Shown: positions 12,943 to 59,992, counted from the first letter of the stretch. The stretch is DNA of 64,000 nucleotides from Candidatus Micrarchaeota archaeon (GCA_964496415.1 CAZBZN010000001.1:1-64000); one strand, 5' to 3'. The notes: generated by a model from the sequence alone, not told the origin. Made by a program: numbers and translations.

Positions 12943-13632
12943 ATGAAGTACAGGTCATTAATCATTGCATTAGTGTTAAGTTCAGTTGTTTTAGCATCTT
13001 GTCAGGACTATGCAAAATTAGCTGAAGAAAGAACACTTCCACCTTATCCTAATTATTTTGGAGCAGCTGGAGAATTTCAGCATGCTGCTGACTGCTATTA
13101 CTCAATAGGTGAAGAAGCTTTAGCTAAAGAGTATTACGCAAAAGCAGCAGAGTATTATACTGTTGCGGTTACTCAGTTGGTTGAAGGCGGGGATAATTAC
13201 TTGAGAGGAAAGAGTTATGAGCTTGCCGGTGATTCTTATTACAAGGCAGGAATGATTTCACAAGCAATTCAGGCATATAACAAGTCTTTCACTGTTTTTT
13301 CATCAAATGGGTATGATGCTGAAGCGCAACAGGTAATGAAAAAACTAGAAGCTCTTACTAAAAGAGTTGACCTTTCTCCTTATGTTGGATTGATTTCTTT
13401 AACAGCATTATTTTTCAGCTTGTTTTCTTTAGTTTATGTCTGGAGTTATTCAAGAAAAAACCAGCAGCCGTTAGTAATAGAAAAAAAGATAATTAAAAGA
13501 GAAGTAGTTGAAAAACCAATAAAAAAGATTGAATTTAAGAAGAAAGAAGAAGTTCCAGTAAAAAAGAGAGAAGTGATGAGTCCTAAAGAAAAGCTTGCTA
13601 AGAAGCTTAGGGAAAAATACATGCCTAAGTGA
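12943..13632 (+). CDS. Secreted, membrane-anchored TPR/SNAP-like helical-repeat protein
   Basis: Signal peptide with LASC lipobox-like motif, Ala/Tyr helical repeats, TM helix, Lys-rich tail. Confidence 0.6.
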   Translation: MKYRSLIIALVLSSVVLASCQDYAKLAEERTLPPYPNYFGAAGEFQHAADCYYSIGEEALAKEYYAKAAEYYTVAVTQLVEGGDNYLRGKSYELAGDSYYKAGMISQAIQAYNKSFTVFSSNGYDAEAQQVMKKLEALTKRVDLSPYVGLISLTALFFSLFSLVYVWSYSRKNQQPLVIEKKIIKREVVEKPIKKIEFKKKEEVPVKKREVMSPKEKLAKKLREKYMPK

Positions 13633-15317
13633 GGCTGGTTGCTTTGAATTTTTTTGAAATAAAAAGCCATGACCTGGCTGCTAGGATAACAAAGCTTAAG
13701 ACAAACCATGGGACAATAACTACTCCTACGATTCTTCCAGTCATAAACCCAAAAGCACAGGTTATTCCTGCTTCTGAAATGAAAGAGTTCGGAGTAGAAG
13801 CAGTGATTACTAATGCGTACATTCTTTGGAAGGACTTAAGAGAAGAAGCATTAGATAAAGGCGTGCATGATTTGATAGGGTTTAACGGTCCAGTGATGAC
13901 TGACTCTGGAGCTTACCAGTTAATGGAGTACGGCGAGATAAGCGTAAGCAATAGGGAAGTAATCGACTTCCAGAAGAAGATAGGTGTTGATGTTGGAGTA
14001 ATTCTCGACGTTCCAACAAGCAGCAGCGACGAAGAAGCAGTGAAAGCAAGCGTTGCAGAGACCATTACACGCGCAAAGGAAGCAAAGCAATGGGCTGATG
14101 ATTCTCTTTTGTGGGCTGGGCCTGTGCAAGGCGGGACTAACTTAAAGCTGTTGAAGAAGTCTGCGATGGTCATGGATTCTCTTGGATATGACATCCTGCC
14201 AATTGGTTCTGTTGTTCCTTTGCTTGTGAAGTATGATTTCGCTTCAGTCGTGAGGATGATTAAGACAGTAAGAGAAACCACTGAAAAGCCTTTGCATTTG
14301 TTCGGCGCAGGTCATCCTATGTTCTTTTCTTTTGCAGTAGCTCTTGGAATTGACTTGTTTGACTCAGCTGCTTATGCTTTGTATGCTAAGGAAGGAAGGT
14401 ACTTGACTCCTCTTGGCACGAAACACTTGTCAGAACTTAAAGAACTCCCTTGCTCCTGTCCAGTATGTTCTAACACTCCTTTAAAAGAAATGGACGAGGA
14501 GAAGCTTGCAAGGCATAATCTTTTCGTAACAATGCAGGAGATAAGAACTGTAAGACAAGCTATAAGAGAAGGGGAATTGTTTGACTTGTTGTGCCAGAGA
14601 GCTGCTTCCCATCCTTCTCTTTACAAGGCAATGAAACAACTTGTCAAATACAAGGATTTCTTTGACAAAAGAGACCCCATTACTAAGAAGCACTTCTTTT
14701 ACTCCTCTGAGTTTTCAAAGCACAGGGTAGAAGTAATAAGAGTCAAGGAAAGGCTTTCAAGAATAAAGTCAAAGCAAAAGCAAGACATAGGACTGTTCAA
14801 ACAAGTTCCAATAACACTAACAGAATGCTATCCTTTCACTCAGTATGTTGACGGGGAGGAGAGAAAGCTGAAAAAAGCTCCAAATGGTTTTGAGAAGATA
14901 AGAGACGCAAGCTTGTACTGGTTTGGAGTGAATTTGTTCAAGCCAACGGACACTGTAAAAGTGTCAAGAAGCACTGGGAAGATAAGAGCAGTGTACAGGA
15001 AAGGAGAGTTGTTAGCTGTTTTCAGAGCATCAGACTTTATGATAATGCTTCATGCTGCTTCAAGAGACCTGCATGAAAAAACAAGACCACCCGAACATAG
15101 AGTGATAGTAAGAAAAGACGTTGCTGAATTCATCAAGCAAGGGAAGAGCGTGTTCGCAAAACATGTTATTAACTGTGGTAACATAGTGCCAGGCCAACAA
15201 GTACTGGTAGTCACAGAAGACGACGAGCTTTTAGCATCAGGAGACGCTTTGCTTAACTCTTCTGAAATGCTTGCAATGAAAAAAGGCCCTGCAGTAAGCG
15301 TGAGATGGCATGCGTAA
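13629..15317 (+). CDS. tgtA: Archaeosine tRNA-guanine(15) transglycosylase
   Basis: MTDSGAYQ, HLFGAGHP, DLFDSAAY, CSCPVC Zn site, C-terminal PUA domain. Confidence 0.95.
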   Translation: MRLVALNFFEIKSHDLAARITKLKTNHGTITTPTILPVINPKAQVIPASEMKEFGVEAVITNAYILWKDLREEALDKGVHDLIGFNGPVMTDSGAYQLMEYGEISVSNREVIDFQKKIGVDVGVILDVPTSSSDEEAVKASVAETITRAKEAKQWADDSLLWAGPVQGGTNLKLLKKSAMVMDSLGYDILPIGSVVPLLVKYDFASVVRMIKTVRETTEKPLHLFGAGHPMFFSFAVALGIDLFDSAAYALYAKEGRYLTPLGTKHLSELKELPCSCPVCSNTPLKEMDEEKLARHNLFVTMQEIRTVRQAIREGELFDLLCQRAASHPSLYKAMKQLVKYKDFFDKRDPITKKHFFYSSEFSKHRVEVIRVKERLSRIKSKQKQDIGLFKQVPITLTECYPFTQYVDGEERKLKKAPNGFEKIRDASLYWFGVNLFKPTDTVKVSRSTGKIRAVYRKGELLAVFRASDFMIMLHAASRDLHEKTRPPEHRVIVRKDVAEFIKQGKSVFAKHVINCGNIVPGQQVLVVTEDDELLASGDALLNSSEMLAMKKGPAVSVRWHA

Positions 15318-39423: not shown

Positions 39424-39909
39424 TTATTTTTTCTTTTTAGCAGGCTGCTGTTTTTTCCTTTGCACTCCTACGGTTACTCCTGTTCTTCCCATTGTTCTTG
39501 TTCTCTGCCCTCTTACTGGCAGTCCAAACATGTGTCTTACTCCTCTGTATGAACGCATGTTCATTTCTCTTTTCTTGTCATTTTGAATGGCAAATTCAAG
39601 ATCTGAACCAACTAAATGAATATCTCTTCCACTTTCAAAGTCCTTTCTTCTATTAAGCATCCATGTTGGAATGCCAAATTCTCCAGGAGAAGCTATTATC
39701 TTTTCTAATTTTTCTAATTGTTCATCAGAAAGATAACCTATTTTTGTGGACTTTTTAACTCCTTCTGTTTTTTCAAATTCCCCAGCTATTGCTTCCGCTA
39801 ACCTTTGTCCTATTCCTTTAACCATTCTTAAGGCTTTTATCATGTCGTAGTTTCCATCAACTTCGTAGCCTGAAAGCCTTAATCTTCCCTTGAATTCTGC
39901 TTCAGTCAT
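39424..39909 (-). CDS. rps13: 30S ribosomal protein uS13
   Basis: KGIG, WMLNRRKD, GLPVRGQRTR. Confidence 0.96.
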   Translation of the reverse strand: MTEAEFKGRLRLSGYEVDGNYDMIKALRMVKGIGQRLAEAIAGEFEKTEGVKKSTKIGYLSDEQLEKLEKIIASPGEFGIPTWMLNRRKDFESGRDIHLVGSDLEFAIQNDKKREMNMRSYRGVRHMFGLPVRGQRTRTMGRTGVTVGVQRKKQQPAKKKK

Positions 39910-39933
39910 TCATTCACCAGAATTTTTTATTTC

Positions 39934-39965
39934 CCTGTAGGTCACAGCCTTAGCGGCTCGCCAGG
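39934..39965 (-). promoter_or_regulatory. Candidate k-turn in the 5' leader of the rps13-rps4-rps11-rpoD operon
   Basis: TGGC-GA-GCC-GCTAA-GGC-TGT-GA-CCTA; TTTATAA box at about 40010-40016. Confidence 0.55.
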
Positions 39966-40039
39966 ATTTGGTTTTTTATAACAAGTGTTATGATTTGTGA
40001 ACTCTTTTGTTTATAAACCTTATGGAAACAGCCGCACCA

Positions 40040-40093
40040 CTGGGTTGAGGTCCGTAGGACCGAAGTCCTGTAAATGCAGGCTTTTTGAAGCCT
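40040..40093. repeat. Degenerate copy D of the tRNA-trailing repeat
   Basis: TTGA-GGTCC-GTA-GGACC-GAA plus AGGCTT-TTTG-AAGCCT: same architecture, different stem sequences. Confidence 0.5.
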
Positions 40094-40156
40094 TAGGGGA
40101 TTGAGAACCACGTTAGTGGTTCGAACATCCCCTGTCCGTAAACCGCACGCGGTTTA
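40094..40156. repeat. tRNA-trailing double-hairpin repeat, copy C
   Basis: Identical to 37541-37603; 1 nt from the tRNA-Ser discriminator. Confidence 0.92.
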
Positions 40157-40157
40157 A

Positions 40158-40325
40158 CGCGGCGGGGGAGATTCGAACTCCCGTGCCCCGAAGGGCACCA
40201 GCTCTCCAGGCTCACCTCACTTTGTTTAAGTTCACTTTTTAAGCAAAGTGAACTGGCGCAATACCATTGCACCCACAAGGGTGCAAACCAAATGGCTTGC
40301 CATTTGTGGTCTATGCGACCGCCGC
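40158..40325 (-). tRNA. tRNA-Ser(GGA) with two introns: 15/16 (40267-40310) and 30/31 (40211-40252)
   Basis: GCGGCGG/CCGCCGC acceptor, G73, TTCGAAT, variable arm TGCCC-TTCG-GGGCA; removing both BHB introns restores the AGTGGTA D-loop and CCAGC-CT-GGA-GA-GCTGG (82-nt mature tRNA). Confidence 0.92.
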
Positions 40326-40331
40326 ATGTTT

Positions 40332-41165
40332 TTATTTGATAACTTTTTCTGTTTTTATCATTTTTCCTTTTTTCGAATTTATTATTGTTTTTTTATCATA
40401 GAGAGCTGTTCCTATGGCTATAAGTTCTTGCTTTTCATTGATTATGGCTATTGGTGATCCTTTTACTATGTGTCCTTTTAGTTCTATTATTCCTGATCTG
40501 AATACTGGCGCTCCTTTTAGTATGTTTTTTTCAGCAGTTTCTTTTACTATTGCTTTTGGCATTAGTTTTACAGCGTACTCTAAGGGTTTTATTACTTCTT
40601 TTAGTAGCTTTGGATTTTCTTTTTCTAATGCTACCGCGTCTTTTAGTTTTGTTATGGTAATACATTCTTCTTCAGTGAATGGTCCTGAGCGGGTTCTTCT
40701 TAGTTGCAGCATTGTTGTTTTTGTTCCTAAGACTTTTCCAAAGTCTTCAACTAATTTCCTTATGTATGTTCCATGCTGGCAGCTTACTCTGAAAAGATAG
40801 TAGTTTTTTTTCTTTTGAATTAGTTCAAGCTCGTATATTCGTCTTATCCTTATTTTTTTCGAAACAGCTGAAAGTTCAGGTGGTTTTTGGTAGATTTTTC
40901 CAGTGAATTCTTTAAAAAGAGTGTTTATTTTTTCTTCAGGAATTTCTTCTTCTATTTTCATTAGGCAGACGTACTCTTTGTCATGTTTTTGCAGGTATTC
41001 TATTAGTTTTCTGCCTTTTCCTACTAGTATTGGCAGGACTCCTGTTACTTCAGGGTCAAGAGTGCCGCAGTGCCCTGCTTTTTCATTAAGGATTTCAGAT
41101 ACCCATTGAGTGACTTGGGCACTTGTAGGCCCTCTTGGTTTGTCAATTAAAATCAGAGCATTCAT
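40332..41165 (-). CDS. cbf5: H/ACA pseudouridine synthase Cbf5 (TruB family)
   Basis: IDKPRGPTS, GTLDP, YQKPP, GTYIR, LRRTRSGPF, PUA domain. Confidence 0.93.
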   Translation of the reverse strand: MNALILIDKPRGPTSAQVTQWVSEILNEKAGHCGTLDPEVTGVLPILVGKGRKLIEYLQKHDKEYVCLMKIEEEIPEEKINTLFKEFTGKIYQKPPELSAVSKKIRIRRIYELELIQKKKNYYLFRVSCQHGTYIRKLVEDFGKVLGTKTTMLQLRRTRSGPFTEEECITITKLKDAVALEKENPKLLKEVIKPLEYAVKLMPKAIVKETAEKNILKGAPVFRSGIIELKGHIVKGSPIAIINEKQELIAIGTALYDKKTIINSKKGKMIKTEKVIK

Positions 41166-58128: not shown

Positions 58129-59556
58129 TCATCCTTTAATACAGCCTATTGGTCTTACTCTTACTACTTTTTTAGCTAACCCGGCATTGTGCACTGCGTC
58201 AACTACTTCTGCTACGTCCTTGTAAGCTTCAGGAGCTTCTTCAGCTACTCCTGCGTAAGAATGTGCTTTAACTATGATTCCTTTTTCCCTTAGTCTGCGG
58301 ATTATTTCCTCTCCTCTCCAGGAATGTTTTGCTTTTGTCCTGCTCATTCTTCTTCCACCGCCATGGCAAGCGCTTCCAAAAGTCTTACTGGTTCCGGTTT
58401 CTGTTCCAACTAATATGTAAGAGTATGTTCCCATGCTTCCTCCTATGAGTACTGGTTGTCCTACTTCCATGTAATCTTTTGGCAATTCTTTCCTGCCAGG
58501 ACCAAAAGCTCTAGTAGCTCCTTTTCTATGAACATAAAGTTTTCTCTTCTCCCCGTCAACGTCATGCTCTTCTATCTTGCACGTGTTATGTGAGATATCA
58601 TAAAGTGTTTCCACTTTTGCTTCTGGAAGTACTTTTTCAAAAGCAGTCCTTGCCAAGTGAGCTATTACTTGCCTGTTCGCTAACGCGCAGTTTATTCCAG
58701 CATTCATTGCACCCCAGTAATCCTGTCCTTCTTTTGATTTTATAGGAGCACATACGAGTTCCCTGTCCCTTATAGGAATCCCGTACTTTTTTGAAGCCTG
58801 CGCAAGGATTGGAAGGTAATCCATTCCTATCTGATGCCCAAGAGCTCTTGAACCACAGTGAAATGATATTAAGACATCTCCTTTTTCCACTTTGAACACT
58901 TTTGCTGTTTTTTCATCAAACACTTCATCAACTACTTGAATTTCTAAGTAGTGGTTTCCTGAACCAAGAGTCCCTACTTGCTTGTACTGCCTTTTTTTTG
59001 CTTTGTGTGATACTTTTGAAGCATCAGCTCCGTCAACTCTGCCGAATTCTTCTATGAATTCAAGGTCTCTTTTTGTCCCATACCCTTGTTCAACAGCCCA
59101 AACAGCTCCTCCTTCTAGCACTTCATCAATTCCCTGTTCAGTTAGCTTTATTTCACCAGTGCTTCCAAGACCAGCAGGTACTGTTCTAAACAATTCGTTT
59201 ACTACCTCCTCTATTTTTTCCTTTACTTGTTCTTCTTTCAGGCCAGTCCTCATTGTTCTTACTCCGCAAGAAATGTCAAACCCTACTCCTCCTACTGAAA
59301 GTATTCCTTCATCTTCGTCAAAAGCACCTACTCCTCCTATTGGGAAACCGTACCCCCAGTGAGCGTCAGGCATTGCCATTGCTGCTTTAACAATGCCTGG
59401 AAGGCTTGCCACGTTCATGAGTTGTTCTCTTACTTTTTCATCCATTTCTGTAACTAGTTTCTCGTCAGCGTAAATCCTTGCAGGAACATTCATTTCACCA
59501 GTTTTTTCAATTTCCCATTCATAGTCACTTATCTTTTTCAAAGCTTTAATATCCAC
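58129..59556 (-). CDS. rtcB: RNA-splicing ligase RtcB
   Basis: MPDAHWGYGFPIG, DISCG, GSGNHYLE, HRKGAT, ACHG, EEAPEAYK; no intein. Confidence 0.97.
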   Translation of the reverse strand: MDIKALKKISDYEWEIEKTGEMNVPARIYADEKLVTEMDEKVREQLMNVASLPGIVKAAMAMPDAHWGYGFPIGGVGAFDEDEGILSVGGVGFDISCGVRTMRTGLKEEQVKEKIEEVVNELFRTVPAGLGSTGEIKLTEQGIDEVLEGGAVWAVEQGYGTKRDLEFIEEFGRVDGADASKVSHKAKKRQYKQVGTLGSGNHYLEIQVVDEVFDEKTAKVFKVEKGDVLISFHCGSRALGHQIGMDYLPILAQASKKYGIPIRDRELVCAPIKSKEGQDYWGAMNAGINCALANRQVIAHLARTAFEKVLPEAKVETLYDISHNTCKIEEHDVDGEKRKLYVHRKGATRAFGPGRKELPKDYMEVGQPVLIGGSMGTYSYILVGTETGTSKTFGSACHGGGRRMSRTKAKHSWRGEEIIRRLREKGIIVKAHSYAGVAEEAPEAYKDVAEVVDAVHNAGLAKKVVRVRPIGCIKG

Positions 59557-59575: not shown

Positions 59576-59992
59576 TCATACGTCAACAATGCATTGAGCA
59601 ATCCAATGATCATTTGTTTTCTCAACTTTTACCTGTGAGTAAGTGGCTGCTTTTACTTCTGTCTTAGGATGGTGCTTTTCAGGGTTAAATTCTTCTCCGA
59701 GAGCGATAGCGGTTAGTTTGTTATCGTTTATGGTTACTTTAAAATCTTTGAAGACAATTCCTTCTAAGTCCATTTCTGTAAGCAGCTCGTTGAGGAATGA
59801 TACGAGAAGACTTTCAAGGTCTGTTGACTCGCAGGTTATTTTTATTTCTTTGCAGGGGGTTATGTTTTCTAAGTCAAACATTATTGAAAACATTGCCTTG
59901 GCACATTCAGTAAAAGCTTCTTCAACTGTTTTTCCAATTCCTCTTACTCCTATGTCAGCAGTGTGTTCAAAAGTTTCGAACAACTTACTCAC
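59576..59992 (-). CDS. Archease (RtcB cofactor)
   Basis: FEHTADIG, EVKAATY, C-terminal VDV; adjacent to rtcB. Confidence 0.94.
   Translation of the reverse strand: MSKLFETFEHTADIGVRGIGKTVEEAFTECAKAMFSIMFDLENITPCKEIKITCESTDLESLLVSFLNELLTEMDLEGIVFKDFKVTINDNKLTAIALGEEFNPEKHHPKTEVKAATYSQVKVEKTNDHWIAQCIVDV

Follow-up and report, generated by a model that had tools for sequence, protein, structure and literature searches.

What keeps the interior of a 44-nt tRNA intron so strongly structured? The question is raised by the tRNA-Ser(GGA) gene in a 64,000-nt stretch of the genome of Candidatus Micrarchaeota archaeon (GCA_964496415.1, CAZBZN010000001.1:1-64000; hereafter the window). An earlier note, made from the sequence alone, had described its D-loop intron (intron 1) as folding into a near-perfect rod across the junction that circularisation would create. 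Our answer centres on the bistability of the intron. Intron 1 has two folds, one presenting the bulge-helix-bulge (BHB) splicing motif (fold I) and one hiding it (fold II); both are far stronger than expected by chance, mutually exclusive, and kept by compensatory substitutions despite differing exon context. The reading that we prefer, to which we assign a probability of about 0.5, is that intron 1 belongs to a lineage-specific, spreading family of protein-spliced (BHB) switchable tRNA introns in which ligation would lock the rod in place. With roughly even odds, the selected feature would be the pair of exclusive folds and not the junction helix, the rod being the end state of the switch.

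A D-loop intron with two exclusive folds

The two folds are built from the following elements, all on the minus strand; pairing percentages refer to the related introns treated in the next section.

40158..40325, minus strand: tRNA-Ser(GGA) gene, G1 at 40325 and discriminator at 40158, three exons and two introns (ARAGORN after in-silico excision, BHB and cloverleaf search, orthologues)
40267..40310, minus strand: intron 1, 44 nt long, inserted into the D-loop after G15 and before U16 (sequence, ARAGORN, BHB and cloverleaf search)
40313..40316, minus strand: exon-1 strand of the BHB central helix, GCAT, tRNA positions 10-13, also the 5′ strand of the D-stem (from the sequence; in relatives 91.7% paired, 2/4 pairs changed on both sides)
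40269..40272, minus strand: intron strand of the BHB central helix, GTGC, intron nt 39-42, lying within hairpin 2 in the other fold
40304..40309, minus strand: 5′ strand of BHB helix B, CCACAA, intron nt 2-7, with a 3-nt overlap with hairpin 1
40273..40278, minus strand: 3′ strand of BHB helix B, TTGTGG, intron nt 33-38, corresponding to the loop and first pairs of hairpin 2
40283..40300, minus strand: hairpin closing the intron interior in fold I, nt 11-28 (GCAAGCC/GGTTTGC), which cannot coexist with hairpin 1 or hairpin 2 (in relatives 80-88% paired, one pair changed on both sides)
40289..40306, minus strand: hairpin 1, nt 5-22 of the intron, a 7-bp stem capped by a tetraloop (in relatives 96.7% paired, 4/7 pairs changed on both sides)
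40267..40286, minus strand: hairpin 2, nt 25-44 of the intron, an 8-bp stem capped by a tetraloop (in relatives 91.7% paired, 4/8 pairs changed on both sides)

In fold I, the 5′ strand of the exon-1 D-stem pairs with nt 39-42, nt 2-7 pair with nt 33-38, and a third hairpin closes in the interior. The central helix GCAT/GTGC, which includes one G-T pair, lies between the bulges AG^A and AA^T, so that the motif shows the features of the archaeal hBHBh′ type, namely 3-nt bulges on opposite strands, each with its cut site behind the second nucleotide, a 4-bp helix and flanking helices. Helix B (CCACAA/TTGTGG) has six pairs, and the outer exon-exon helix is weak, with two to three pairs (three including G-T as counted by our script; kA=3, kB=6). 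Fold II consists of hairpins 1 and 2. Hairpin 1 occupies part of the 5′ arm of helix B, while hairpin 2 takes up its 3′ arm, the exon-binding strand and the terminal bulge nucleotides. Since the 3′ strand of hairpin 2 is formed by the last eight intron nucleotides, the BHB strand and both of its bulge nucleotides are sequestered in this fold.

Nearest-neighbour energies, predicted at 37 °C as are all energies given here (55 and 70 °C were tried too), place the free linear intron at −18.5 kcal/mol in fold I and −21.0 kcal/mol in fold II. Such a pair of values is rare: when the interior was shuffled with the arms kept (n=1500), 17 sequences reached fold I, none reached fold II, and none reached both at ≤ −15 kcal/mol. 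The minimum free energy (MFE) structure of the precursor tRNA, at −81.6 kcal/mol, keeps the D-stem, pairs nt 1-4 with the four 5′-most bases of exon 2, and contains both hairpins; with the BHB enforced the energy is −76.4 kcal/mol, 5.2 kcal/mol above the MFE. In the predicted ensemble of the precursor the BHB pairs have probabilities (P) of 0-0.02 and the hairpin pairs of 0.70-0.98. We considered the 4-bp helix ACCA/TGGT of the MFE precursor as a mimic of the BHB and dismissed it, as its cut sites lie 5′ of each strand and not in 3′ bulges. The balance between the folds recurs in five homologous introns, where the linear fold I/fold II values are −18.5/−21.0, −15.0/−17.7, −14.7/−13.5, −16.5/−18.2 and −16.8/−17.7 kcal/mol, differences of 1-3 kcal/mol, and where the BHB fold is 0.5-4.9 kcal/mol weaker than the alternative in the local precursor context.

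The BHB pairs, bulges, stem and splice sites 40310/40267 that the earlier note had proposed are confirmed by the sequence, by ARAGORN after excision, and by the combined motif and cloverleaf search. Its suggestion that the hairpins compete with the BHB in the precursor holds as well, and gains weight from the compensatory changes by which relatives keep both folds. The unspliced tRNA-Ser(GGA) is missed by both ARAGORN and Rfam. The region 40325..40158 (minus strand) is interrupted twice and shows an acceptor stem of 7 bp together with a T-arm and a long variable arm, and after in-silico excision of 40310..40267 ARAGORN reports a tRNA-Ser(GGA) with a second intron of 42 nt. In an exhaustive search of the 167-nt region, in which every BHB-like candidate was combined with a cloverleaf check, introns at gene positions 15-59 (44 nt) and 73-115 (42 nt) were among the equal-best solutions, and the same pair ranked first in the ARAGORN-checked run. 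The spliced tRNA-Ser(GGA) has a cloverleaf score of 14 with A14, GG, T33 and the long variable arm present, and its exon boundaries agree with those of an intron-less orthologue in a related genome (G003).

We propose that the two folds would act in sequence. During transcription the local hairpins would form first, leaving the intron as a domain of its own while the D-stem and the rest of the tRNA body fold. The splicing endonuclease EndA would then capture the rarer fold I, and after cleavage the intron would return to fold II, by which the D-stem strand would be freed and the BHB strand hidden. RtcB would subsequently close the intron, as with other archaeal BHB introns, and closure may leave fold II as the sole accessible state in the tRNA-Ser(GGA) copy, which would be the rod described in the earlier note.

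Conservation of both folds in an intron family

BLAST searches in 60 relatives, exact-pattern scans and two covariance models revealed related introns at the same D-loop site, amounting to 13 members in five genomes and one metagenome contig. The identities of the host tRNAs in relatives were assigned by ARAGORN after in-silico excision, and G000 denotes the genome to which the window belongs.

G000: family introns in Ser GGA and Lys CUU
G004: family introns in Ser GGA, Ser GCU, Thr CGU and two unassigned multi-intron genes
G011: family introns in Ser UGA, Thr CGU and Thr UGU
G002: family intron in Thr UGU
G001: family intron in one unassigned gene
Metagenome contig: family intron in Thr GGU

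Covariance-model matches in these six sources scored 23-96 bits and occurred in 4 of the 31 genomes of a phylum-level set and in 6 of 151 relatives. Exact-pattern scans found 21 loci in GTDB genomes, four of them real tRNA introns (in two genomes) and the others chance matches in bacteria, and 24 loci in metagenomes, one of which is real. In distant members the boundaries are uncertain and the BHB is relaxed (3/4 central pairs). Introns with a single hairpin stand at the same D-loop site in G011 Ser GCU, G000 Thr UGU, G002 Thr GGU and G022 Lys. The G000 case (contig 1, 74308-74360, minus strand; L102) is a tRNA-Thr(UGU) gene whose 35-nt single-hairpin D-loop intron at 15/16 is accompanied by another intron past the anticodon.

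Covariation was counted in the nine best-aligned members using covariance-model alignments, which replaced a MAFFT alignment of five introns in which hairpin 2 was shifted by one column. For fold II, 94.0% of the alignment cells are paired and 8/15 pairs have changed on both sides (17 cells), a level that none of 500 shuffles attained; sliding the partners by 1-3 columns lowered pairing to 38-50%. For fold I, including the exon-intron helix, 88.1% of the cells are paired and 5/17 pairs have changed on both sides (7 cells), compared with 0-1 of 500 shuffles and 30-47% pairing with slid partners. These shuffle counts overstate significance because the sequences are related copies.

Individual substitutions illustrate how hairpin 2 has been maintained. 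In both Ser copies of G004, position 37 has changed from G to A and its hairpin-2 partner from C to T (pair 8), while the helix-B partner is unchanged, so that the helix-B pair is broken. In the Ser UGA gene of G011, the last intron nucleotide has changed from A to G and its hairpin-2 partner from T to C. The Thr copy on the metagenome contig carries ATGC instead of GTGC as its exon-binding strand and the interior follows, and in G004 C22 three hairpin-2 pairs have been swapped together. In these sequences hairpin 2 tracks the exon-specific BHB strand of each host tRNA gene. As a source for the interior TGGTTTGCAC we considered a duplication of the similar exon 2 segment TGGTATTGCG; this idea was dropped, as G011 and the metagenome copy have another linker and another first base in hairpin 2.

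One could argue that no second fold has been selected at all, and that the hairpins merely arise from the GC-rich, partly palindromic make-up of an intron whose interior has no task beyond extending helix B, with the apparent covariation arising from ancestry and from a fitted alignment. The data set gives this view some footing, consisting as it does of just 9-13 related sequences in a structure-fitted alignment, and single-hairpin introns work at the same site. Because the alignment had been fitted to fold II and the copies are related, we added an alignment-free check. The last eight nucleotides have an 8/8 complement in the interior in 7 of the 13 members and a 7/8 complement in the remaining six, whereas the four single-hairpin introns at the same site reach just 4-5/8. 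An 8/8 complement to the last 8 nt did arise in 32 of 2000 interior shuffles (1.6%) of one sequence, which again leaves room for a by-product. Two strong exclusive folds, however, were seen in none of the 1500 shuffles, and hairpin 2 has been kept through two-sided changes despite differing exon strands, once with loss of the competing BHB pair. We therefore consider a mere by-product to be quite improbable.

Several further points weigh against the two-state reading. The alignment was fitted to fold II by the covariance model, which favours the fold II counts. Splicing, both folds and the circle are themselves predictions, and the energies behind them are nearest-neighbour values. The low predicted frequency of the BHB fold in the precursor of intron 1 could equally mean inefficient splicing. 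Moreover, the 4-bp exon-intron helix should dissociate unaided, so that product release may need no help from a second fold. Conservation is also imperfect: hairpin 2 is weak in two Thr introns of G011 (6/8 pairs, including G-T), and hairpin 1 contains a mismatch in the Ser GCU gene of G004. Since hairpin 2 is lacking from four introns at this D-loop site, the second fold is dispensable for splicing there. Finally, although the terminal strand is mostly unpaired in the unrelated reference introns, which form a small set because our strict cloverleaf catalogue of G000 cleanly resolved only three intron-bearing genes (an ARAGORN-based version was too permissive), three unrelated Ser anticodon-stem introns (29-31) have it paired when free (P 0.70-0.86), and sequestration may therefore be commoner and less specific than we propose.

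The predicted circular rod and its junction

The rod that drew attention to this locus was reproduced. The circular intron has an MFE of −21.4 kcal/mol with the 17 pairs, two tetraloops, single 2-nt bulge and mid-helix junction that had been described. The register preferred by ViennaRNA is ACCA/TGGT followed by 5 bp, and the originally drawn register of AC/GT followed by 7 bp has −20.0 kcal/mol. Whole-intron dinucleotide shuffles reached the circular energy once in 2000, and the earlier note's own control, shuffling the interior with the BHB arms kept, came out in its favour, with 0/2000 for mononucleotide (z −5.6) and 0/2000 for dinucleotide shuffles (z −4.9). Its claim that the BHB is destroyed in the circle also agrees with prediction: fold II at −21.4 kcal/mol compares with −13.4 kcal/mol for the BHB-type fold, and with this gap of 8 kcal/mol ligation would lock fold II. 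The enzymes that the note had placed in the window are indeed encoded there:

58132..59556, minus strand: RtcB RNA ligase gene (Pfam PF01139, E 6e-173)
59579..59992, minus strand: archease gene (Pfam PF01951, E 1e-47)

The EndA catalytic domain gave one match in G000, in a 188-aa frame on contig 18; no search for a second subunit was made.

Is the circle then the selected form? According to such a scenario, the interior evolved to pair across the junction, splints its own ligation by RtcB, and persists as an EndA-resistant rod-like mini-circle acting as a small RNA. The junction pairs are predicted at P 0.98-1.00 in the 17-bp circular rod from 37 to 70 °C, and hairpin 2 extends to the very last intron nucleotide, where the terminal pair covaries once (T-A to C-G, the G011 change described above). 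Furthermore, between G000 and G004 intron 1 of the same gene is identical at 39/44 positions, while intron 2 has diverged save for its 3′ end, and the genes for RtcB and archease are in place. There are also precedents for stable, functional circular tRNA introns, the tRNA-Trp intron as covered in PMC3326292 being an example.

The energetics and the relatives, however, speak against a role for the junction. Through closure the 5′ leader gains two to four pairs with the linker, which are worth 0.4 kcal/mol; with −21.0 kcal/mol the linear intron nearly equals the circle, and the structure is therefore not specific to the circle. The self-splinting before ligation that the earlier note had inferred finds little backing, as the splinted geometry is populated at only about 0.2 in the linear ensemble (P 0.17 for A1:T24 and 0.22 for C2:G23). 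RtcB is not known to need a splint. The expectation that related introns would share junction complementarity with covariation was likewise not borne out. Among the 13 members, pairing of nt 1 with the base before hairpin 2 is possible in six and pairing of nt 2 in seven; both junction-crossing pairs are possible in three, all of them closely related Ser copies of G000 and G004, and where nt 1 has become T or C, as in several members, no compensation has followed. The circular MFE is the two-hairpin fold in four of the nine aligned members, three of which stack across the junction, and a long hairpin with an open junction loop in the other five (a script flag of "stacked" for G002 is really a long hairpin plus an isolated pair). 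In four of five homologues the circle is predicted to be less stable than the linear form.

A function of the circle as a small RNA finds no conserved target either. Intron nt 12-26 (40285-40299) are an exact 15-nt antisense match to the mRNA of a minus-strand open reading frame on G000 contig 20 (3885-3899; blastn-short E 0.017). This match, the only one of its kind in the genome, is not kept in G004, G011 or G001-G003; not being conserved, it is probably due to chance, and we rejected the candidate. No C or D box motif and no guide complementarity was seen by eye in the 44 nt, and no Rfam family, including ribozymes and viroids, matched the intron at E up to 10 beyond noise. The label "viroid-like" is thus apt for the predicted shape of a hypothetical circle and not otherwise: Rfam gave no sign of autonomous replication or of a self-cleaving ribozyme, and the intron is 44 nt long and encoded in a chromosomal tRNA gene. 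Taken together, we judge selection for the circle itself to be unlikely. In the two-state reading that we prefer, the rod would instead follow from fold II, which the precursor and the linear intron already favour.

Spread of the family, known systems and implications

The distribution of the family shows that its introns have been gained and lost in the manner of the "transposed" introns of Thermoproteales, because they occupy many tRNA genes at two positions and are missing from orthologous genes. The syntenic tRNA-Ser(GGA) gene is intron-less in G003 and carries only an anticodon-stem intron in G001 and G015; the D-loop intron is missing from tRNA-Ser(GGA) orthologues in two genera of the same taxonomic family, and eight more Ser genes of other relatives are uninterrupted. 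Two T-loop introns of G000 (contigs 4 and 5) align over their full length with the D-loop family and follow the same two-hairpin plan, with junctions flanked by a 5-nt direct repeat, AAATC, which makes their exact boundaries ambiguous. The tRNA-Lys(CUU) gene on contig 5 (32209-32354, minus strand) holds a D-loop and a T-loop intron of this one family. A second tRNA, on contig 4 (19684-19727, minus strand), has a T-loop intron with a core identical to that of the contig 5 copy. Several tRNA genes of G004 (L031/L088 on contig 2; L090 and L100 on contigs 22 and 9) contain up to three introns, and their long T-loop inserts share a palindromic segment of the CAGCTGAAGCTGAAG type, common to several genes, which may represent another shared intron family.

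Such a pattern invites the explanation that the hairpins are the signature of movement or persistence at the DNA level, that is, of a mobile element, small and palindromic, whose short inverted ends read CTGCAA...TTGCAG and which enters sites able to form a BHB; the hairpins would serve insertion or ride along, and the RNA folds would be tolerated consequences. We know of no transposase or mechanism for such elements. The patchy occurrence, with no D-loop intron in the syntenic tRNA-Ser(GGA) genes of G003 and G001 from the same taxonomic family, the at least seven tRNA identities and two positions (D-loop and T-loop), the identical core and flanks of the two G000 T-loop copies over the compared stretch and the direct repeat at their junctions would all fit an element of this kind. 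Intron families spanning tRNA types have been interpreted as DNA-level transposition in Thermoproteales, in the account given in PMC4090602. Outside tRNA genes, however, G000 holds no extra copies of hairpin 1, hairpin 2 or the intron (≤3, 4 and 10 mismatches, respectively), and viral contigs gave two chance matches, neither in a tRNA-like context. Moreover, that hairpin 2 tracks the exon-specific BHB strand of its host points to selection at the RNA level after arrival. On balance, we regard DNA-level movement as the reason for the hairpins as rather unlikely.

The mobile history supported by the distribution is in line with the earlier note's idea of a mobile intron, while nothing marks the circle as the intermediate. 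In a more far-reaching version of the switchable family, a rod resisting EndA and exonucleases could be the persistent form that mediates spread, by re-entry where a BHB can be rebuilt by the exon-binding strand, or that regulates the maturation of Ser and Thr tRNAs in trans by pairing with the D-stem strand; we consider this very improbable.

The two-state reading can be set beside several known systems. In bistable RNA switches, such as transcription attenuators, segments pair either 1:2 and 3:4 or 2:3 and 1:4. Intron 1 is similar in setting two local hairpins against one long-range helix, and differs in that no ligand, ribosome or terminator is involved; its output would be access for the splicing endonuclease. 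The closest case is the tRNA-Trp intron, in which a box C/D guide fold and the BHB are mutually exclusive. That archaeal tRNA introns are circularised after excision is established (PMC3326292). The Trp intron, which forms a stable circle in Haloferax and Sulfolobus (Danan et al. 2012, PMC3326292, citing Salgia et al. 2003), resembles ours in being an unusually conserved and structured BHB intron; in its case the excised intron is circularised by the tRNA ligase. It is, however, 65-105 nt long, compared with 44 nt here, where no C/D boxes or guide were seen and the circle is predicted only. Metazoan tRNA intronic circular RNAs (tricRNAs; Lu et al. 2015, PMC4536317; Schmidt et al. 2019, PMC6614914) are also circles made from tRNA introns by the splicing endonuclease and RtcB, and the strength of the intron stem matters for their biogenesis; unlike our intron, they are eukaryotic and at the canonical position, and they are not known to have a conserved alternative fold that masks the BHB.

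Among archaea, the non-canonical D-loop BHB introns of Crenarchaeota and of DPANN/ARMAN lineages (Fujishima et al. 2011, PMC3239211; reviewed in PMC4090602) are alike in being protein-spliced outside position 37/38, missed by standard finders and found in multi-intron genes of small-genome archaea; their BHB, too, has two 3-nt bulges, and its 4-bp helix uses one strand of a stem of the mature tRNA. What differs here is a second fold that excludes the BHB and is conserved by compensatory change. The "large-scale intron transposition" of Thermoproteales (Fujishima et al. 2010, as reported in PMC4090602 and bioRxiv 10.64898/2026.10.13.758758) likewise involves related introns across tRNA identities and positions (D-loop 15/16 and T-loop), with exon-pairing strands adapted to the host and a patchy occurrence among orthologues. 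Our family differs from these introns in belonging to another phylum, to DPANN-type archaea with genomes of about 0.6-0.9 Mb, and in its defined two-hairpin architecture. D-loop BHB introns, circular introns and shared intron families are therefore already known, and the new element is the conserved alternative fold masking the BHB, of which our full-text searches of an open-access library found no description.

The remaining features of the locus concern the second intron, its surroundings and the genome.

40211..40252, minus strand: 42-nt intron 2, interrupting the anticodon stem at 30/31; its BHB has a CGCC/GGTG central helix, AG^T and AG^C as bulges, and a helix B of 8 bp

ARAGORN places intron 2 one base later (31/32); we adopted 30/31 because the anticodon stem is then a perfect CCAGC/GCTGG, matching that of the intron-less orthologue in G003. 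Within intron 2 (40211-40252, minus strand) AAAGTGA is repeated, which gives the 5′ arm two alternative partners. The proximal partner yields a 10-bp hairpin that uses the AG ahead of the 5′ splice site, and once intron 2 is circularised the identical AG at its 3′ end would replace this AG. The tRNA gene lies between cbf5 (40335-41165) on one side and the gene for ribosomal protein S13 on the other. Just 3′ of the discriminator (about 40120-40157, minus strand) stands a short perfect hairpin, AAACCGC/GCGGTTT, and comparable hairpins are found upstream of both Ser genes of G004. Elsewhere in the window (13629-15314, plus strand), an archaeosine-type tRNA-guanine transglycosylase (TGT) is encoded with TGT, C2 and PUA domains. 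Its target is G15, the last exon base ahead of intron 1, and the intron may therefore influence the timing of G15 modification. The G000 genome comprises 687,403 bases in 41 contigs with 36% G+C and 91% completeness, and the three sequencing runs listed as covering 39900-40600 of the window are all DNA, from hydrothermal vent metagenomes. ARAGORN with intron search reports just 28 tRNA genes in the whole of G000, several of them doubtful; many of its tRNA genes escape detection because their introns are non-canonical or multiple.

The tRNA introns of archaea are generally viewed as passive inserts that are constrained by the BHB alone. In the two-state reading, the interior of this intron would be under selection for a second fold that hides the BHB, with the same design at two positions and in many tRNA genes. 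A large share of the tRNA set in such genomes escapes standard finders. If the reading is true, the family would provide a mutable RNA element for testing whether a non-canonical intron times its own splicing or makes it irreversible, a natural small scaffold that turns into a closed rod upon ligation by RtcB, and a tractable system for studying intron gain outside Thermoproteales.

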